A DNA stretch of 58,446 nucleotides, taken from IMG/VR virus record IMGVR_UViG_3300025597_000001. The stretch is one strand, 5' to 3'. The number at the start of each line of letters is the position of its first letter. The first letter of the stretch is position 1. Origin of the DNA: a virus. This document shows, piece after piece, positions 16,324 to 58,446 of this stretch. The notes beneath the pieces are model-generated. The model was not told where the DNA came from, ran no database searches, and saw only the letters and a list, made by a program, of their open reading frames with translations. The translations under genes and the position numbers were made by a program.

Positions 16324-17868
16324 TTATGTATCATCATTTGAACTTGTTTGTGTTATATTTTTAGCTTTTTGAATTTCCGTTTCTAACTCAGCCATCTGTT
16401 TTGCCTTTTCCTCTTTTATTATTCTATCCCATTCGCTTACGGTAGAATACATAGAAATCTTCTCAGAAGCTGTTTGTCTTGAAATGAATTTGTTCTGAAC
16501 CGCAGCTGCCAAATCTGCAACCATAGCACTTTCAGATACGTGAACATAAGGTTTTATCCACCATTTCATTGGTAGGGTTGCAAAGTCAATCGTACTCTTA
16601 ACTTCCATTCCATAACCGTGAGAGAATATCTTTACCATTTCGTTCAAAAATGGTTGATATTCATTGGCATCAATCATCGCTTTTTCATAAGCAGGAGAAT
16701 ATAATATTTTAAGTGCAGCTGCAGGAAGGTCTCCAGATTTAAGAGAAGGTGGTATAACCGTGAACGACTGTTCATATATCATCTTATATAAAGTATCAAT
16801 CTGTTTCATAAACGATTCCGAAGCATTCGGAGCATTAAGATAACCAGCCTTGTCATCTTTGCCCATCTCAAGAACCTTTATCGTACCATTCATATCAAAC
16901 TCTTTTCCAATAGCCGTCTTGCCATCCCCCTGTAAATAAAGAATAGGGAATCCGTATGCCTGATTATTCTGTGCCATCTGTGAAACTGAAAGTTCAAACT
17001 CTTCTATAGAATTTTGAGAAGGCGTCCAACAAGCACCATCGTTATCTCTCATATAAGCTACTGGTACGAATGGGAATCCGTGAGCTTTTTTACTTATAAT
17101 AGAATAACCATCTATTCCGAATATATTTAATATCCTCTGTGGAATAGTTTTAGCTGCGGATTTTTTATATCTTGTGAGATAGACTTCATCCCAAACCTCC
17201 AGCCATTCTGTGATTTGATTGCCATCTTCATCGTTGTCATAGTATGAACGTGCAAACAGTAACATTCTCCCTGTTAATGGGTCTCTATGTGGATAAAGTG
17301 TGTCTCCGTTCAGAAAAGATAGTGTTTTATATCCAAATTCACCATTATTCATAAAACCAACGAATGCAGAATCGCCGGTTATCTTGGTTGATTTTGTAGT
17401 TTCATAAAGAGCCAGTTCCATGTCTTTTTGTATCCAACCACTTCTGAATTTAAGAAACATCTCTTTTTGTTCTTCTGTCGGGTTTTTCACATTAAGCTCA
17501 AACTGAACATCATTTCCACAAAGATGTACTATTTGTTTTAGAGCGATAATTTGTTGAAATGCAAATGCAAGTCTTGGAACGCATTCTTTATAAATACGCT
17601 TTTCAGTTCCTGTTTGATTGCCGTCTTCGTCGAATATCGGGACAGTCTCTTCCTTGTAAATATCAGGATAAACGGTTGGGTCGTTAATTGTATGTCCAGA
17701 AGGATAAAACTCCCGAAGAAAATCAGCTTGCGTTACCGTCTGGAACAACATATTGTCGTTTGCTGATGAAAACGGTTCTTCCGTTGAGGTAAATCTCGAC
17801 TGCGATAGATACCCAGTAGGTGTAATACGTTTCCAAACTCTTTTTGTTTTAATGTCGATTGGTCTCAT
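16324..17868 (-). CDS. Portal protein
   Basis: 514-aa ORF in the packaging block downstream of terL. Its size and acidic C-terminus fit SPP1 gp6-type portals. No catalytic motif is expected. Confidence 0.65.
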   Translation of the reverse strand: MRPIDIKTKRVWKRITPTGYLSQSRFTSTEEPFSSANDNMLFQTVTQADFLREFYPSGHTINDPTVYPDIYKEETVPIFDEDGNQTGTEKRIYKECVPRLAFAFQQIIALKQIVHLCGNDVQFELNVKNPTEEQKEMFLKFRSGWIQKDMELALYETTKSTKITGDSAFVGFMNNGEFGYKTLSFLNGDTLYPHRDPLTGRMLLFARSYYDNDEDGNQITEWLEVWDEVYLTRYKKSAAKTIPQRILNIFGIDGYSIISKKAHGFPFVPVAYMRDNDGACWTPSQNSIEEFELSVSQMAQNNQAYGFPILYLQGDGKTAIGKEFDMNGTIKVLEMGKDDKAGYLNAPNASESFMKQIDTLYKMIYEQSFTVIPPSLKSGDLPAAALKILYSPAYEKAMIDANEYQPFLNEMVKIFSHGYGMEVKSTIDFATLPMKWWIKPYVHVSESAMVADLAAAVQNKFISRQTASEKISMYSTVSEWDRIIKEEKAKQMAELETEIQKAKNITQTSSNDDT

Positions 17869-18592
17869 TGTTTATATGATTTTTGATTCTGTTACTTGCT
17901 ATATCAAAGTATTTGTCGTCTTTTTCAATGCCTATAAATCGTCTATTGGTGTTTAGGCATGCTATACCTGTCGTGCCGCTACCCATAGCATTGTCTAAAA
18001 CAAGCTCTCCTTCGTTTGTATATGTTTTAATAAGGTACTCAAATAGTGCTACTGGTTTTTGTGTAGGATGATAACCTCTTTCTTGATTGAATTGCAGTAT
18101 ACGTGTTGGATACCTAAATCCGTCATTTACAGTTGTTGTCGGCTTCATTACAGTATCCGTTATCTCGTAATTACGTGGAGTTTTGTCTCGTTCCACTTTA
18201 TATGGTTTTCCTTCTGTAAATTGCGGATTATAAGTAGGTTGTTTTTTGTAGAACACGCATATATCTTCATAATTATTTAAAGGTCTTTTCTTTGCCATAA
18301 AAGGGTCTACGCCTTGTGGTTTCTGCCAAATCCAACAATACTTAAACATTTCAATGTTTGAATTTATTAATTTAGTTGTAAAAGGTTGACACGCTGTTAA
18401 CACTATTGCTCCGTTAGGTTTTATAATGCGTTTGTATTGTTCCCATAATTTATTAAGAGGGATAATAGAATCCCATTTGCACGCAGTTGTTCCATAAGGT
18501 AAATCGCAGATGATTGCATCTATACTCTTGTCTGGTATATCCTTCATCAACTCCAAACAATCTCCTTTCAATAATTTGATTTGTTCGTTCAT
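17849..18592 (-). CDS. DNA methyltransferase (DPPY-like, beta-class), paralogue of 50242..51012
   Basis: 247 aa with IICDLPYGT, YHPTQKPVALFEYLIKTYTNEGELVLDNAMGSGTTGIA. Confidence 0.85.
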   Translation of the reverse strand: MNEQIKLLKGDCLELMKDIPDKSIDAIICDLPYGTTACKWDSIIPLNKLWEQYKRIIKPNGAIVLTACQPFTTKLINSNIEMFKYCWIWQKPQGVDPFMAKKRPLNNYEDICVFYKKQPTYNPQFTEGKPYKVERDKTPRNYEITDTVMKPTTTVNDGFRYPTRILQFNQERGYHPTQKPVALFEYLIKTYTNEGELVLDNAMGSGTTGIACLNTNRRFIGIEKDDKYFDIASNRIKNHINNETNRH

Positions 18593-18612
18593 TCTAATTT
18601 GTTTTTAAATTA

Positions 18613-18924
18613 TTACTTATTTACTATCAAATTCCACAAATCTTCTGATGTTCTCAGTGGTATATTTTCATTATCTATCTTAACACACCCGTCTTTGTAT
18701 TTATCACCAAATTCCAACTCCCAAATAAAATAGTTTATCCACTCATTTTCATCGTTGGTTAATTCTTGCAATAGTTTAATCATTGTATCTATAATAACGT
18801 GATTGTCATATCCGGAAATATAATCGAACGGTAGAATGATTTTAAATGCCTTTAAACACTCTTTGTCTTTGTCCATCTGCTGTTTAATAGCGTTGATTGA
18901 AGAAATGAATAATTCTTTGTCCAT
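18613..18924 (-). CDS. Hypothetical protein (internal start MDKELF chosen)
   Basis: The track ORF runs to 18990 but would overlap the terL end (18935). The ATG at 18924 removes the overlap. Confidence 0.5.
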   Translation of the reverse strand: MDKELFISSINAIKQQMDKDKECLKAFKIILPFDYISGYDNHVIIDTMIKLLQELTNDENEWINYFIWELEFGDKYKDGCVKIDNENIPLRTSEDLWNLIVNK

Positions 18925-18934
18925 TTTTGTAGTT

Positions 18935-21691
18935 TTAAAATTTATTTCTATTGAAAATTGTGTTGCGGTGATAAAATTGAGGCGAAACATATTTAGTTCC
19001 TAATTTAGGAATCCCTTTACTCTTCTTCTCTTTTATTTCAAATATCATTCTCATAATCATAGCATCCATAAAGTCAGGAGAGTGTCCTACCAGTTTCTTC
19101 ATATCCACTTTCTTGATAAGCGTAAATCCTTTCTCATAAGACGTTGAATTTGCCCTTATAGCTTTTCTCTCTTCCATTAGTATTTGCCTCAACTGTACGT
19201 TCTTGTTCTTTCCAGCATCAAATCTATAATCAAGTAATGTTGGCTCTATTGATATTTCCTTATTGATTATCTTCTTTGCCAATAAATAAGCCGCCTGTGA
19301 TTTAATCGTATCGTACAGTCCCTTGTCTTCTTCCGATACCGATTCCCTATTGTTAAATGGAACTGCCCCGTTAAAGAATCCCTTAAATATCTGTCCTATA
19401 CCATTCAGGTCATAAGTGAAATTCTCTTCCAATACTCTCCATTCTTTTAGTTTAGCTTTAACTACATTTACGGTATCTTTAGAATCTTTACGGCACACAA
19501 AAAGGTCTTTTAAGTGCCATCCTTCCCACAGCCACATAACAAGATTATCACCTCCGTCGAACGCTGCATCAAGAGAAGCTCTTTTTACGCCATCACCTAT
19601 TTGTTGAGGATTATTGAAAAATGCTTCCATGTGATTCATCTTAATCATATCATCACCAACGGATTTATATTTCCAGTTTCCTTCCAAATCACGAGAGCGT
19701 TGTTCTTCGGATTGACCAGCGAGGTTAGCAAGGTAGGTCGGGTCTGAACGCATAAGTTGAATGTTATCCGCAAGACGTGCCTCAACAAAAGTTACGGATT
19801 TAACAAATAAATCGGCAGGATTCCCATATTCGGCATACGCATCTATCCATAGTTTGTCTATGATGTTTCTGCATTGTTCATAAACTTCCTGTTTACTGTT
19901 TCCCCATATTATATCCTGTACTTCATCTCCGTTCATAAAACAATATCTACGTACCCCGTCTCTTTCTTTAATAGGAAGCCCATCTTCTCCTATCCACCAG
20001 TCAATAAACTGAGCTACCCACGAATCTGGGTCAGGGTTGGCAGTACACCATATTCTATTGCGTATTCCAAACGCATTACGATTATTTGTAAGTAGGTATT
20101 TGAATTTATTATATTCCATGTGGGTGATTTCATCAATACCTATATAAGCGTATTGCTTACCCTGCATACGTATCTTAAATTCCTCGTATTTATCTGAATA
20201 ATAATTGAATTTTAGTGATGCACCACTATTAAAATTCCATGACATATCCGCTTTAGAACGATTATATGTTCCGAAGTCAGAATACACATCATAAGATGTA
20301 TCAACAAGGTCTGAAAGGTCTTCTATTTCGTGTCTCAATATTGTTGCTCTAAAATTCTTGTTTTGGTAGTCTTTTAAGGCCTCTAAAAGAAGAGAGAATG
20401 AATTGTGGGTTACGATAAAATCATTAACCAAAAAAAGAGAATCAGAGTTTTCAACTCTAATGCAACACACTTCTTCTTTTCCAACATATTCACAATCTAT
20501 TATTCTGCGACCATATTCACTTACTCCTCCGTTATATTCTCTGCATAGCTCTTTTTTTCGTGTAAGCCTGAATAATCGTTCTGAATTTGGTATTTTAATG
20601 TATATTATATAGGCATCATTGCATTGTACGTATTCACCATCTGCTGTTTTATATCCAGCCTTATTCTTACTTATCGTAGCAGTTCCACCAAGACTATTAA
20701 TCATGAACTTGACGTCTTTTGCTAATTGTTCGCTAATAGTGGTATAAGAGCAATGTCCTCGTTGGTCAATCATTCCATCAGTGTCCATTAATCCCTGAAC
20801 TAACGCAAACCGCTCTTCGATTGTTCCAAACTTGTACATATCTGGGATAAATTTACTTGCCGCAAGATGTCCACTTAAACCTATGGTCTTAATATAGTTT
20901 ACTAACTTTTCATCTTTAATGTAGTATGATGAAGCCTTGTTCCCTTTTTTATCCACCCTGTGCGCCATAGATATACCAGCTTTTACAAACTGTTGAACAA
21001 CCTCATCATCCATAGTTGTTAACGAAACAGCATTTCCGTTGTATATTGTATTTGAAACACATCCGGCACCCAAAAGAGCTCCTATTAGATATGGGTCTAT
21101 TGATTTATCTTTTTTATTGTAATTGATTGTAAATGCAACAGGATCGCAAAGGGGGACAATAAGATTATTGCTATACTTCGATTCTTTGTGCTTCTCAAAC
21201 TGAATGTGTTTGTATATCATATCTGTAGTCCACACTCTCCAATCTGCCTCTAATCCATTTCCGCCTAACTTTCTTTTTTTACTTATATAGTTAGTCTTGC
21301 GCAAAGTCCATGCGTGGTCATAAGAGCAAATAACCGAAGAACCGTCTATAAATGTCATTTTATAAACGTCTTTAACGCCATTGAATGAAATACTCCAAAC
21401 TCTCTGCATTCTACCATCTCTGCCAGTGATTATTGAGCCAGGCTTTAATTCAGAAATAGGTCTAAATCCAAACGGAGTACACACTAATGTGCTGTAAATC
21501 AGACATTTTGAGCCACCCCTCGAGCCTCCACCAAAAATAATATCCGCATTTTGAGACAGCATATTCTCCTGTCCACCACGTTGAGCAATAATTTTATATG
21601 GATTTTTCTTTTTAGCATCTTCCTTGCGAAGGTGTTCTATATAATCCCAAGAATAGAAATCTTTATCTTTTATCGTTAAAAATCTATCCAT
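18935..21691 (-). CDS. terL: Terminase large subunit, interrupted by an intein
   Basis: The extein reads ...IIFGGGSRGGSK | SFSLLLEALKDYQ... (P-loop), with YIGIDEITH (Walker B-like) and a C-terminal nuclease-sized region. The ATG at 21691 is preferred over the GTG at 21709. Confidence 0.85.
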   Translation of the reverse strand: MDRFLTIKDKDFYSWDYIEHLRKEDAKKKNPYKIIAQRGGQENMLSQNADIIFGGGSRGGSKCLIYSTLVCTPFGFRPISELKPGSIITGRDGRMQRVWSISFNGVKDVYKMTFIDGSSVICSYDHAWTLRKTNYISKKRKLGGNGLEADWRVWTTDMIYKHIQFEKHKESKYSNNLIVPLCDPVAFTINYNKKDKSIDPYLIGALLGAGCVSNTIYNGNAVSLTTMDDEVVQQFVKAGISMAHRVDKKGNKASSYYIKDEKLVNYIKTIGLSGHLAASKFIPDMYKFGTIEERFALVQGLMDTDGMIDQRGHCSYTTISEQLAKDVKFMINSLGGTATISKNKAGYKTADGEYVQCNDAYIIYIKIPNSERLFRLTRKKELCREYNGGVSEYGRRIIDCEYVGKEEVCCIRVENSDSLFLVNDFIVTHNSFSLLLEALKDYQNKNFRATILRHEIEDLSDLVDTSYDVYSDFGTYNRSKADMSWNFNSGASLKFNYYSDKYEEFKIRMQGKQYAYIGIDEITHMEYNKFKYLLTNNRNAFGIRNRIWCTANPDPDSWVAQFIDWWIGEDGLPIKERDGVRRYCFMNGDEVQDIIWGNSKQEVYEQCRNIIDKLWIDAYAEYGNPADLFVKSVTFVEARLADNIQLMRSDPTYLANLAGQSEEQRSRDLEGNWKYKSVGDDMIKMNHMEAFFNNPQQIGDGVKRASLDAAFDGGDNLVMWLWEGWHLKDLFVCRKDSKDTVNVVKAKLKEWRVLEENFTYDLNGIGQIFKGFFNGAVPFNNRESVSEEDKGLYDTIKSQAAYLLAKKIINKEISIEPTLLDYRFDAGKNKNVQLRQILMEERKAIRANSTSYEKGFTLIKKVDMKKLVGHSPDFMDAMIMRMIFEIKEKKSKGIPKLGTKYVSPQFYHRNTIFNRNKF
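20402..21505 (-). mobile_element. Intein (368 aa) with LAGLIDADG homing-endonuclease domain
   Basis: It starts with Cys (CLIYSTLVCTPFG) right after the P-loop Lys and ends ...FIVTHN, followed by Ser +1. Block B-like is SYDHAW. The two dodecapeptides are YLIGALLGAGC and LVQGLMDTDGMID. Confidence 0.85.
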
Positions 21692-21787
21692 AAATAAGAT
21701 ATTTAACACAAAAGTACTAAAACTTTTTTATAAAACAACATTTTAAGAAAAAATTTTCCACAAAACGAGGAAAAAATTAAAAAAATA

Positions 21788-57406: not shown

Positions 57407-58321
57407 TTATTTAAGTGCAAATAGTCCGTTGTCTGTAATTGCATTGATAGTTTTTATTCTACTTTCAATCTTGTGAACTTTGATAAGTTCCTTCAATGCC
57501 TCTTTGTGGGTCATTTTCATTATTTTTTCCCTTTCTTGTGCTAAAAATGTAAGGGCTTCTTCTTTTGAAATAGCGATACTTTCAGTTGCAACTCCTTTCT
57601 CAATACTCCACAAAGGTTCAATTGCTTTAGAAAAGGAGAGGATGGTTTTATTGATTGCTAACCAATAGTCGGTAGCATTTTTTGAAGGATTGAGTGCCTT
57701 TACGGTTTCAAATATTTTTTTTAAAAGTTGTTGAGCTTTTGCTTGCCCTTCTTTTTCAGAATATGCAAGAAGTAAAGCAAGGTGAGAGTAGGTGAAAATA
57801 CACACATTTTGTGTTGTTGCTTGTTGGTAAATTTGGCTTGAAGAAGTTGGAAGCTGATAAATAGGGCAAACTACCATTGCATAAGGTTTACCACGTTTCC
57901 AACTGTGCATTGCTTGAACTTTAAAGTCCTTTTGATTTTTTGCTGTTCTGCTTAGTCTGAACGCTTTAGCATCGGCAACAAAGCTGTAGTCTTTTGCAAA
58001 TGCTTCAACGTCTGCCGCATCTGCCCGCTCTTTAAGCACCAAACTTTTAAGTCCTAATGCTGAATATGCTAACGAAAGTAAACAATCTGTGTATTTTGAA
58101 TAGAGTTTTTCTTCGCTTGTGTCGTGTCCATAACTTTCAGGAATGTTTCCGCAAAGTCGCAAGTGGTCAATTAGAGAAGGAATACCATTTTTCTTGATTT
58201 CAGCCTCTAATTCTTTTTCTAATTTATCTGTATCGTCACCGAAATTACCACTCAGTTTTCGGATTTCTTCAATCCAATACTTTCTTGTTTTTATTGCCTT
58301 ATCTGTTATTATTTTATTCAT
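57407..58321 (-). CDS. Type II restriction endonuclease, HindIII-like PD-(D/E)XK
   Basis: 304 aa. The block DVEAFAKDYSFVADAKAFRLSRTAKNQKDFKVQAM...FTYSHLALLL matches, from memory, the R.HindIII D...D-A-K catalytic block. The R-then-M order and about 300-aa sizes also fit. Confidence 0.6.
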   Translation of the reverse strand: MNKIITDKAIKTRKYWIEEIRKLSGNFGDDTDKLEKELEAEIKKNGIPSLIDHLRLCGNIPESYGHDTSEEKLYSKYTDCLLSLAYSALGLKSLVLKERADAADVEAFAKDYSFVADAKAFRLSRTAKNQKDFKVQAMHSWKRGKPYAMVVCPIYQLPTSSSQIYQQATTQNVCIFTYSHLALLLAYSEKEGQAKAQQLLKKIFETVKALNPSKNATDYWLAINKTILSFSKAIEPLWSIEKGVATESIAISKEEALTFLAQEREKIMKMTHKEALKELIKVHKIESRIKTINAITDNGLFALK

Positions 58322-58446
58322 TTAAACCCGTCAAAAATTAGTCTTCAAATTTACTTAAATTGTTGATTTAGCAGTCCGGGAAAAGGTCAAAAGTTGTCAA
58401 CTATTATTAATATCTGTTACGCATTTTGTTAGCATTGCAGCCAACG
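58320..58446. repeat. Second copy of the 127-nt terminal repeat
   Basis: Identical to 1..127. Confidence 0.95.
58346..58353 (-). promoter_or_regulatory. -7 box TAAATTTG upstream of the R-M operon
   Basis: The minus strand reads agTAAATTTGaagac about 25 nt before the REase ATG. No clean -33 TTTG is present. The box lies inside the terminal repeat (also at 27-34). Confidence 0.3.

Follow-up and report, generated by a model that had tools for sequence, protein, structure and literature searches.

A probable class 3 intein in the Walker A motif of a phage large terminase, with signs of past homing

We analyzed the large terminase gene (terL) of the phage genome in IMG/VR record IMGVR_UViG_3300025597_000001, the whole 58,446-nucleotide stretch of which is referred to as the window. 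An insert in the Walker A motif of the encoded terminase (TerL) was confirmed by sequence profiles and a structural model as an intein of known phage type, full-size and carrying a LAGLIDADG domain. We think it likely that this element is a class 3 intein, recognizable by a Trp-Cys-Thr (WCT) signature, that it reached the Walker A motif through endonuclease-type gene conversion, and that its homing has probably been lost or diminished. The occurrence of class 3 inteins in phage P-loop ATPases, terminases included, is already established (PMC2807308; PMC5050341; bioRxiv 10.1101/2025.01.02.630785), as the first-pass annotation of the window had rightly remarked for terminase P-loop inteins. The element is thus not of a new kind, and its added interest lies in the combination of Cys1 with a WCT scaffold, two insertion registers two codons apart within one TerL clade, a very clean co-conversion footprint, and the loss, by a single base change, of a catalytic Asp.

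The intein and its host terminase

The terL gene lies on the minus strand, where an open reading frame (ORF) at 18935..21709 encodes 924 residues when counted from a GTG codon. The probable start is the ATG at 21691, giving a 918-residue precursor, because the homologues P0002, P0010, and P0122 begin at MDRF. The insert, CLIYSTLVC...FIVTHN, occupies residues 69-436 in the GTG numbering and sits in frame between GGSRGGSK and SFSLLLEAL, splitting the Walker A motif precisely after the Lys and before the Ser. The Ser that follows it (Ser+1) doubles as the last residue of the Walker A GK[ST] motif. Removal of the insert leaves a TerL of 550 residues from the ATG, in line with the size of about 550 expected at first reading, and reconstitutes the DNA sequence GGTGGCTCAAAA joined to TCATTCTCTCTT at the insertion site. 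The first-pass annotation had placed the insert precisely (20402-21505) but had not recognized its strand; translation of this interval on the plus strand is crowded with stops.

Pfam searches of the insert returned LAGLIDADG_3 (4e-11, in two stretches) and Hom_end (1e-4), both past their cut-offs, together with a weak Hint_2 match at the N-terminus of the insert. Matches in NCBIfam were restricted to models that make an exception for intein-containing proteins, all well below cut-off. The LAGLIDADG_3 hit and the weak Hint_2 hit answer the proposal that profile searches be run with hidden Markov models. Homologues of the insert were found in 656 phage records, and at least 80% of the insert was covered in 626 of them. 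An AlphaFold2 model built with 23 homologous inteins as input had a mean predicted local distance difference test score of 87.8 and a predicted template modeling score of 0.88. The top match of this model in a Foldseek search of the PDB was PI-SceI (7.8e-18, TM score 0.67), with further matches to TliVMA, PhoVMA, PI-PfuI, the stand-alone LAGLIDADG enzymes I-DmoI and I-Tsp061I, and the mini-inteins MchDnaB1 and gp41-1; for PI-SceI, the match extends to the endonuclease domain. The model and its Foldseek matches both recover the HINT fold. The splicing blocks are represented by C1, SYDH, EEVCCIRVE, and VTHN followed by Ser, and the gp41-1 and DnaB mini-inteins can be aligned to both halves of the splicing domain. 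The LAGLIDADG helices of the model correspond to residues 138-147 and 229-243 and end at the two catalytic positions, and Pfam, the model, and Foldseek agree on two helices set in the duplicated alpha-beta-beta-alpha-beta-beta-alpha fold of a double-motif monomeric endonuclease. The motifs quoted at first reading (SYDH, YLIGALLGAGC, and LVQGLMDTDGMID) were all located, and the proposal of a full-size LAGLIDADG intein in the Walker A motif of TerL is borne out by Pfam, by the exact Lys/Ser boundary, and by the fold model. PI-SceI, TliVMA, and PI-PfuI share the two-domain architecture of the window intein at 12-16% identity; they differ from it in being of class 1 and in having both catalytic Asp residues, and PI-SceI has an extra DNA-recognition region.

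The host protein has the Walker A and Walker B motifs of a large-terminase ATPase, a matching Pfam profile, and synteny with a portal gene. Removal of the insert improved the Terminase_6N match, which covered the profile from position 4 in the spliced sequence (2.4e-14) and only from position 12 in the precursor (3.9e-12). The annotated large terminase of Bacteroides phage LoVEphage, 64% identical to the window TerL, aligned by BLASTP in two segments, one from query residues 2-68 that ends at K75 and one from query residue 437 onward that starts at T76. The TerL of Dulem virus 40 showed a gap flanked by K62 and S63, as in LoVEphage. Since whole-precursor MAFFT alignments against intein-less TerLs misplaced the short N-extein, exteins were compared by pairwise BLASTP and with genes split at the splice junctions.

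A large protein search yielded four intein-less alleles of 550 residues in addition to more than 110 precursors of approximately 900-925 residues (51-86% identity). One intein-less allele (protein P0010, locus L005) is 99% identical to the window extein and reads GGSRGGSK-SFSLLLE, exactly the predicted splice product; the DNA of its natural empty site is GGTGGGAGTAAG followed by AGCTTCTCCTTA, and L010 likewise has a naturally empty site. The other three (P0017-P0019) have 92% extein identity. Moreover, P0123, P0124, and P0126, which fall in the 90% cluster of the window protein, are intein-less alleles of the P0002-type extein. Judged from these sequences, the terL intein is polymorphic, present in some alleles and absent from others, on no fewer than two extein backgrounds. 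The comparison with intein-less homologues suggested by the first-pass annotation has thus produced both near-identical and distant empty orthologues. The empty alleles contradict the case it had named as refuting, namely that the 368 residues form a conserved integral domain of TerL, and we rejected that explanation given empty alleles at 99% extein identity.

Class 3 signature and splicing route

Class 3 inteins are defined by Trp at position B:12, Cys at F:4, and Thr at G:5 (PMC5050341; PMC3196547), and the class is described as monophyletic. The window intein carries this triplet as Trp66, Cys348, and Thr366. Across the 116 homologous terL inteins on which all family counts are based, Trp B:12 was present in 115, and Cys F:4, Thr G:5, the block-B His, and the block-G His and Asn were present in every one. 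The +1 residue, Ser in 109 inteins and Thr in seven, is as expected for class 3. Position 1 is Cys in just eight of the inteins and Pro, Ala, Gly, Leu, or Met in the remaining 108, which have no N-terminal nucleophile. The conservation of an N-terminal Cys, Ser, or Thr among orthologous inteins that characterizes class 1 is therefore not seen in this family.

Comparisons with characterized inteins point in the same direction. In the search of solved structures, 6riz (1.5e-7) scored better than wild-type gp41-1 (6qaz; 7e-5); 6riz is the C1A/F65W/D107C variant of gp41-1, an attempted graft of the class 3 WCT motif (PMC7664689). Cys348 aligns with Cys124 of the class 3 intein MchDnaB1 and with the engineered Cys107 of gp41-1_WCT. 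The family profile matched the solved class 3 inteins MchDnaB1 (9e-11) and MsmDnaB1 (4e-10), the W, C, and T positions being in register. The helicase intein of mycobacteriophage Alice gp175, which was classed as class 3 in a 2025 survey (bioRxiv 10.1101/2025.01.02.630785), is 32% identical over its full length (E-value 8e-45). This relatedness to established class 3 inteins is one of identity and profile matches rather than of a phylogeny with class 1 outgroups.

The location also agrees with what is known of such inteins. WCT inteins occur mostly in the P-loops of helicase-like ATPases, phage large terminases included (PMC2807308). The phage representatives compared here (mycobacteriophage Bethlehem DnaB, Alice gp175, and actinobacteriophage TerL) share with the window intein Trp B:12, Cys F:4, Thr G:5, and Ser B:7, a Ser or Thr at +1, the THN end, the embedded LAGLIDADG domain, and the ATPase P-loop site. 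They start with Pro, Ala, or Gly and come from actinobacteriophages, whereas the window copy starts with Cys and is carried by a phage of a LoVEphage-like group whose hosts are presumed to be Bacteroidales; it further differs in its Terminase_6N-type extein and in the loss of the first catalytic Asp of the endonuclease. The position between Lys and Ser/Thr of the Walker A motif is the 'classic' insertion site, TerL1-a of mycobacteriophages (Kelley et al., 2016, PMC5050341). TerL1-a corresponds to the window site at the residue level (GK/[ST], the slash marking the insertion point), with the P-loop Ser/Thr as the +1 nucleophile. Its host TerL belongs to Terminase_1, in contrast to the Terminase_6N-like TerL of the window, and Terminase_6-like TerLs of mycobacteriophages have inteins at the C-motif and not in the P-loop (PMC5050341).

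TerL inteins are also known in gut crAss-like phages (Yutin et al., 2021, PMC7886860). Those of the crAss-like phage cr111_1 and of Parabacteroides phage PF672P2, both phages of gut Bacteroidota, are homologous to the window intein (32% and 40% identity, respectively) and combine Ala1 with WCT. The exteins are distant (25.8% identity for PF672P1/P2), with whole precursors at 34% and 27%. PF672P2 has lost the Asp of the second LAGLIDADG motif (DIGG, Asp to Gly), in contrast to the first-motif loss in the window. Its intein-bearing TerL (OP172820.1; L001 3785-6625) is annotated as a 'hypothetical protein'. In general, related precursors are annotated as 'hypothetical protein' or 'terminase domain-containing', and the LoVEphage paper makes no mention of inteins.

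A second insertion register was observed in the family of the window intein. Thirty of the 116 inteins occupy the same site as in the window and begin with Ala (nine), Cys (eight), Gly (five), Pro (five), Leu (two), or Met (one). The other 86, for example those of P0006, P0012, and P0031, start with Pro two codons upstream (GGxRGG/P...THN/SKS) and form a clade nested among the Pro1 inteins at the window site, which looks, from the sequences, as if the insertion register had moved by 6 nucleotides inside one P-loop. The second site of Kelley et al. is one residue away from the first, compared with two residues upstream here.

On the class 3 reading, splicing would probably start at the block-F Cys348 (F:4). 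Aided by His64 and Trp66, this residue would attack the bond between Lys(-1) and Cys1 to give a block-F branched thioester, and the N-extein would then be handed to Ser+1. Cyclization of Asn368 would free the 42-kDa intein, and an O-to-N shift would complete the 550-residue TerL with the junction GGSRGGSK-SFSLLLE and an intact P-loop, GGSRGGSKS. With its Walker A motif divided by the insert, the 918-residue precursor would, judging by established P-loop function, have no P-loop and hence no ATPase activity, and packaging would require protein splicing. The first-pass annotation had noted Cys1 correctly but had taken it for the hallmark; a role as the essential nucleophile is improbable given its absence from 108 of the 116 homologues in a WCT family. 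Since WCT is essentially invariant and Cys1 occurs in only eight of these inteins, Cys1 is likely dispensable; it may be a bystander or may provide a parallel, class 1-like entry to splicing.

Several points weigh against this assignment. Formally, the definition of class 3 excludes Ser, Thr, or Cys at position 1, and the Cys1 of the window copy departs from it; a later wording states that an N-terminal nucleophile is 'not required' (PMC5222942). In the class 3 MP-Be DnaB intein, the P1C substitution resulted mainly in cleavage rather than splicing (PMC2807308), and natural Cys1 forms may, by analogy, have been re-tuned in the active site. Splicing, the initiating nucleophile, and endonuclease activity are all features that we infer from sequence, and, given its Cys1, the window copy may follow a class 1 or mixed route. 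Notwithstanding the nucleophile at position 1 of this copy, we file the window element with the class 3 inteins as its probable mode of action.

A canonical class 1 intein with an active endonuclease would instead splice by an N-S acyl shift at Cys1, transesterification to Ser+1, and cyclization of Asn368, with homing ongoing. Cys1, His64 (B:10), His367-Asn368, and Ser+1 are all in place for this route, and gp41-1, the best solved relative by sequence, is naturally class 1. However, the rarity of Cys1 beside an invariant WCT argues against it, as does the Cys at F:4, where class 1 inteins usually have Asp (PMC2807308); moreover, WCT-engineered gp41-1 and the class 3 DnaB inteins outscore wild-type gp41-1. 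We consider a class 1 element of this kind improbable, and the state of its endonuclease, described below, bears on it as well.

The distribution of Cys1 raises a further alternative. Cys1 forms appear in three places of the neighbor-joining tree, nested among forms without an N-terminal nucleophile, and are thus polyphyletic. The F:2-F:4 stretch of block F is mostly CCC in the family and VCC in the Cys1 forms. Val in place of Cys at F:2 (Val346, 20468-20470, in the window) accompanies Cys1 in seven of eight cases, compared with three of the 108 others (Fisher p = 2e-8, not corrected for phylogeny, with two or three independent events underlying the association). The F:2 change may be compensatory or redox-related. 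It is conceivable, though we regard it as unlikely, that the Cys1 sub-lineages have regained an N-terminal nucleophile that acts alone or beside Cys348, as class 3 to class 1 reversions, intermediates between the two classes, or dual-nucleophile hybrids compensated by the loss of the F:2 Cys. The occurrence of Cys1 in at least three separate places of the intein tree and its co-variation with F:2 speak for such hybrids, and of the 37 WCT inteins that had been described by 2009, three already started with Ser or Cys (PMC2807308). Nevertheless, the co-variation comes from just two or three independent events, and WCT is invariant in the Cys1 forms too, so that Cys348 is apparently still needed. 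If they were real, two splicing mechanisms would interconvert naturally within a single orthologous insertion site, and the path could be mapped on related terL alleles, whose first intein residue is Cys, Ala, Gly, Pro, Leu, or Met.

Past mobility and present state of the endonuclease

Comparison with the intein-less L005 allele revealed a footprint at the insertion site that is consistent with the arrival of the class 3-type intein by gene conversion. The window and L005 are approximately 96.4% identical in DNA on both sides of the intein, and their differences are nearly all synonymous. The mismatches are concentrated around the site, with 25 within 60 nucleotides on either side versus 35 in the other 1533 nucleotides (Fisher p = 1.8e-14). 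We then scored informative sites, defined as positions that separate L005 (empty) from L006 (the intein-bearing allele of P0002). Upstream, the window matched L005 at 16 of 16 sites from -174 to -44 and L006 at nine of ten sites from -40 to -1. Downstream, it matched L006 at nine of ten sites from +1 to +33 and L005 from +36 on. This pattern is what would be expected from double-strand-break repair with co-conversion of the donor extein. On this view, a diverged terL with an intein would have served as donor in an endonuclease-type gene conversion, through which the present terL backbone acquired the intein together with approximately 40 nucleotides of donor extein upstream and 35 downstream. 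The mosaic structure of terL is directly visible in these alignments; as to its probable cause, ordinary recombination between phages, rather than an endonuclease-initiated event, could also have produced the mosaic.

Other alleles fit repeated gene conversion, as far as their sequences indicate. The sister allele L014 has an intein 97.2% identical in DNA and the same upstream tract, with a downstream tract that ends by +21; the shorter tract therefore points to separate events or later recombination. P0002 (Cys1) and P0004 (Ala1) have near-identical exteins and inteins that are just ~50% identical, as in an intein swap. The intein itself is also mosaic: a segment spanning approximately residues 116-253 is far more diverged from L006 (60-80% DNA identity) than the remainder of the intein (90-100%). 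The same segment is found in P0122 and P0125 with Asp147 intact. It was interpreted as a recombinant module for this reason, and its origin from an unsampled lineage or by relaxed decay was rejected on the same grounds.

A second cluster of mismatches to L005 was observed at ~19304-19382 (C-extein nucleotides +1020 to +1098), with 17 differences in about 80 nucleotides of otherwise nearly identical sequence, which suggests that a further short stretch of the nuclease half was exchanged by recombination. L014 carries the L005 type there and differs from the window. No foreign base composition was seen in the intein (36.0% G+C versus 35.1% for the window), and no second intein copy was detected in the window by tblastn.

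The first LAGLIDADG motif, quoted at first reading as intact, lacks its catalytic Asp: it reads LLGAGC in the window, with GAG in place of the GDG found in 114 of the 116 homologues. This D147A change is the lone departure of the window intein among 78 columns conserved at 95% or more, and it corresponds to a single A-to-C change between the GAC codon of L014 and the GCC codon of the window. The second motif retains its acid, Asp243. One catalytic acidic residue is contributed by each LAGLIDADG helix, with one metal ion common to both active sites (PMC3017599). Because each helix supplies one catalytic acid, double-strand cleavage of empty sites has most likely been lost in the window copy, the endonuclease of which is probably dead or at best a nickase. 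Against a complete loss of mobility, some LAGLIDADG enzymes with one impaired site still nick DNA, and nicks can stimulate gene conversion (PMC3017599); the window copy may thus retain one-strand nicking and gene conversion at lower efficiency. The earlier expectation of a homing-competent element is therefore supported for the past of the lineage by the co-conversion tract and doubtful for the window copy, which is unlikely to home now. The same evidence bears on the active endonuclease of the class 1 alternative: Asp243 and all other conserved endonuclease columns are intact, and the homing footprints indicate that the lineage was mobile recently, but the replacement of the catalytic Asp147 by Ala stands against present activity. 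D147A looks like an early step, the first, of endonuclease degeneration in the homing cycle.

It is very improbable, in our estimate, that the insert is a dead, non-splicing insertion in a defective terL of a phage that is not viable alone, or that D147A is an assembly or sequencing error. Metagenome assemblies may hold defective genomes and errors, and the A147 variant is one base away from L014. However, all splicing-block residues conserved in the family are intact and the sole departure, among 78 columns, lies in the endonuclease; the genome assembly is circular, with 58,319 bp and a full structural module. The identical 918-residue A147 protein was found on three to four contigs from two sources, JGI and ENA, which argues against an error. 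One of these contigs (L013, 58,460 bp) is base-identical to the window across terL and may be its own source, a point on the other side, since it limits how far A147 is independently confirmed.

As a separate observation, the intein of P0007, on a 300-kb contig of Petrimonas sulfuriphila, departs from 11 of the 78 conserved columns and, by its sequence, may be a decaying intein in a prophage.

Genomic context and significance

The coordinates of the features are presented in Table 1. Identical 127-nucleotide ends (1-127 and 58320-58446) indicate a circularly assembled complete genome with 35% G+C, which also encodes a structural module. An N6/N4 DNA methylase is encoded between terL and the portal gene. 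The nearest named relatives are LoVEphage-like Bacteroides and Phocaeicola phages. A megablast search of terL against GenBank phages gave no match, and by this comparison the phage is only distantly related at the DNA level to deposited genomes. The position of precursor P0007 on a Petrimonas sulfuriphila contig suggests Bacteroidales hosts.

Table 1. Features of the terL gene, its intein, and associated segments (window coordinates)
Feature	Coordinates	Strand	Remarks
terL precursor gene	18935..21691	-	918 amino acids, stop codon included in coordinates; Terminase_6N match; start as in homologues
N-extein	21506..21691	-	62 amino acids; ends in Walker A GGSRGGSK (21506-21529); aligns with LoVEphage TerL to K75
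Intein	20402..21505	-	368 amino acids, Cys1-Asn368; HINT splicing domain split by double-motif LAGLIDADG endonuclease domain
C-extein	18935..20401	-	488 amino acids and stop; 66% identical to LoVEphage TerL from T76 on
Walker B YAYIGIDE	20129-20152	-	Within C-extein
Nuclease-half acidic motif LDAAFDGGD	19547-19573	-	Within C-extein
Cys1, block A position 1	21503..21505	-	Cys in 8/116 homologous inteins
Block B core SYDHAW	21308..21325	-	Ser61 (B:7), His64 (B:10), Trp66 (B:12, W of WCT)
First LAGLIDADG helix YLIGALLGAGC	21059..21091	-	Catalytic position is Ala147 (codon GCC, 21065-21067), not Asp
Second LAGLIDADG helix LVQGLMDTDGMID	20765..20803	-	Catalytic Asp243 (20777-20779) intact; Asp in 116/116
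Block F EEVCCIRVE	20450..20476	-	Cys348 (F:4, 20462-20464), C of WCT; putative initiating nucleophile
Block G FIVTHN-S	20399..20419	-	Thr366 (G:5, T of WCT), His367, Asn368, Ser+1 (20399-20401)
Upstream co-conversion tract	21506..21548	-	At most 43 nucleotides; matches L006 (donor type), not the L005 backbone
Downstream co-conversion tract	20367..20401	-	At most 35 nucleotides; L006-like to +33
Mosaic segment of intein	20747..21160	-	About residues 116-253, N-terminal half of endonuclease; 60-80% DNA identity to L006
SPP1-type portal gene	16324-17868	-	Downstream of terL

The surroundings of terL and the portal gene hold variable cargo, as seen when window positions 17849-18990 (minus strand) are compared with L006, L008, L014, and L015. 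In the window, this cargo consists of a small ORF of 103-125 residues and the N6/N4 DNA methylase gene; L008 and L015 have the methylase alone, and both are missing from L006. Downstream of terL, L014 carries an HNH/RRXRR ORF, and immediately upstream of terL, L015 carries an IS605 OrfB/TnpB (Cas12f-like) gene. A cluster of tRNA genes adjoins terL in LoVEphage, and no tRNA genes were found in the window. A 69-residue ORF with a TTG start (20403-20612, plus strand) runs antisense to the C-terminal part of the intein; it is without any support and probably spurious. Antisense endonuclease ORFs have been reported for some phage inteins (bioRxiv 10.1101/2025.01.02.630785).

In this phage group, terL is a split gene, and inteins need to be removed before TerL phylogenies are built or size filters applied. 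Packaging in the window phage should hinge on post-translational splicing within the ATP-binding loop. The locus provides a clean series of the homing cycle, with empty alleles, occupied alleles that differ in tract length, swapped intein lineages, a two-codon register shift, and one copy that is a single base past the loss of a catalytic Asp. Finally, closely related inteins with six different first residues offer material for studying the chemistry of class 3 splicing.

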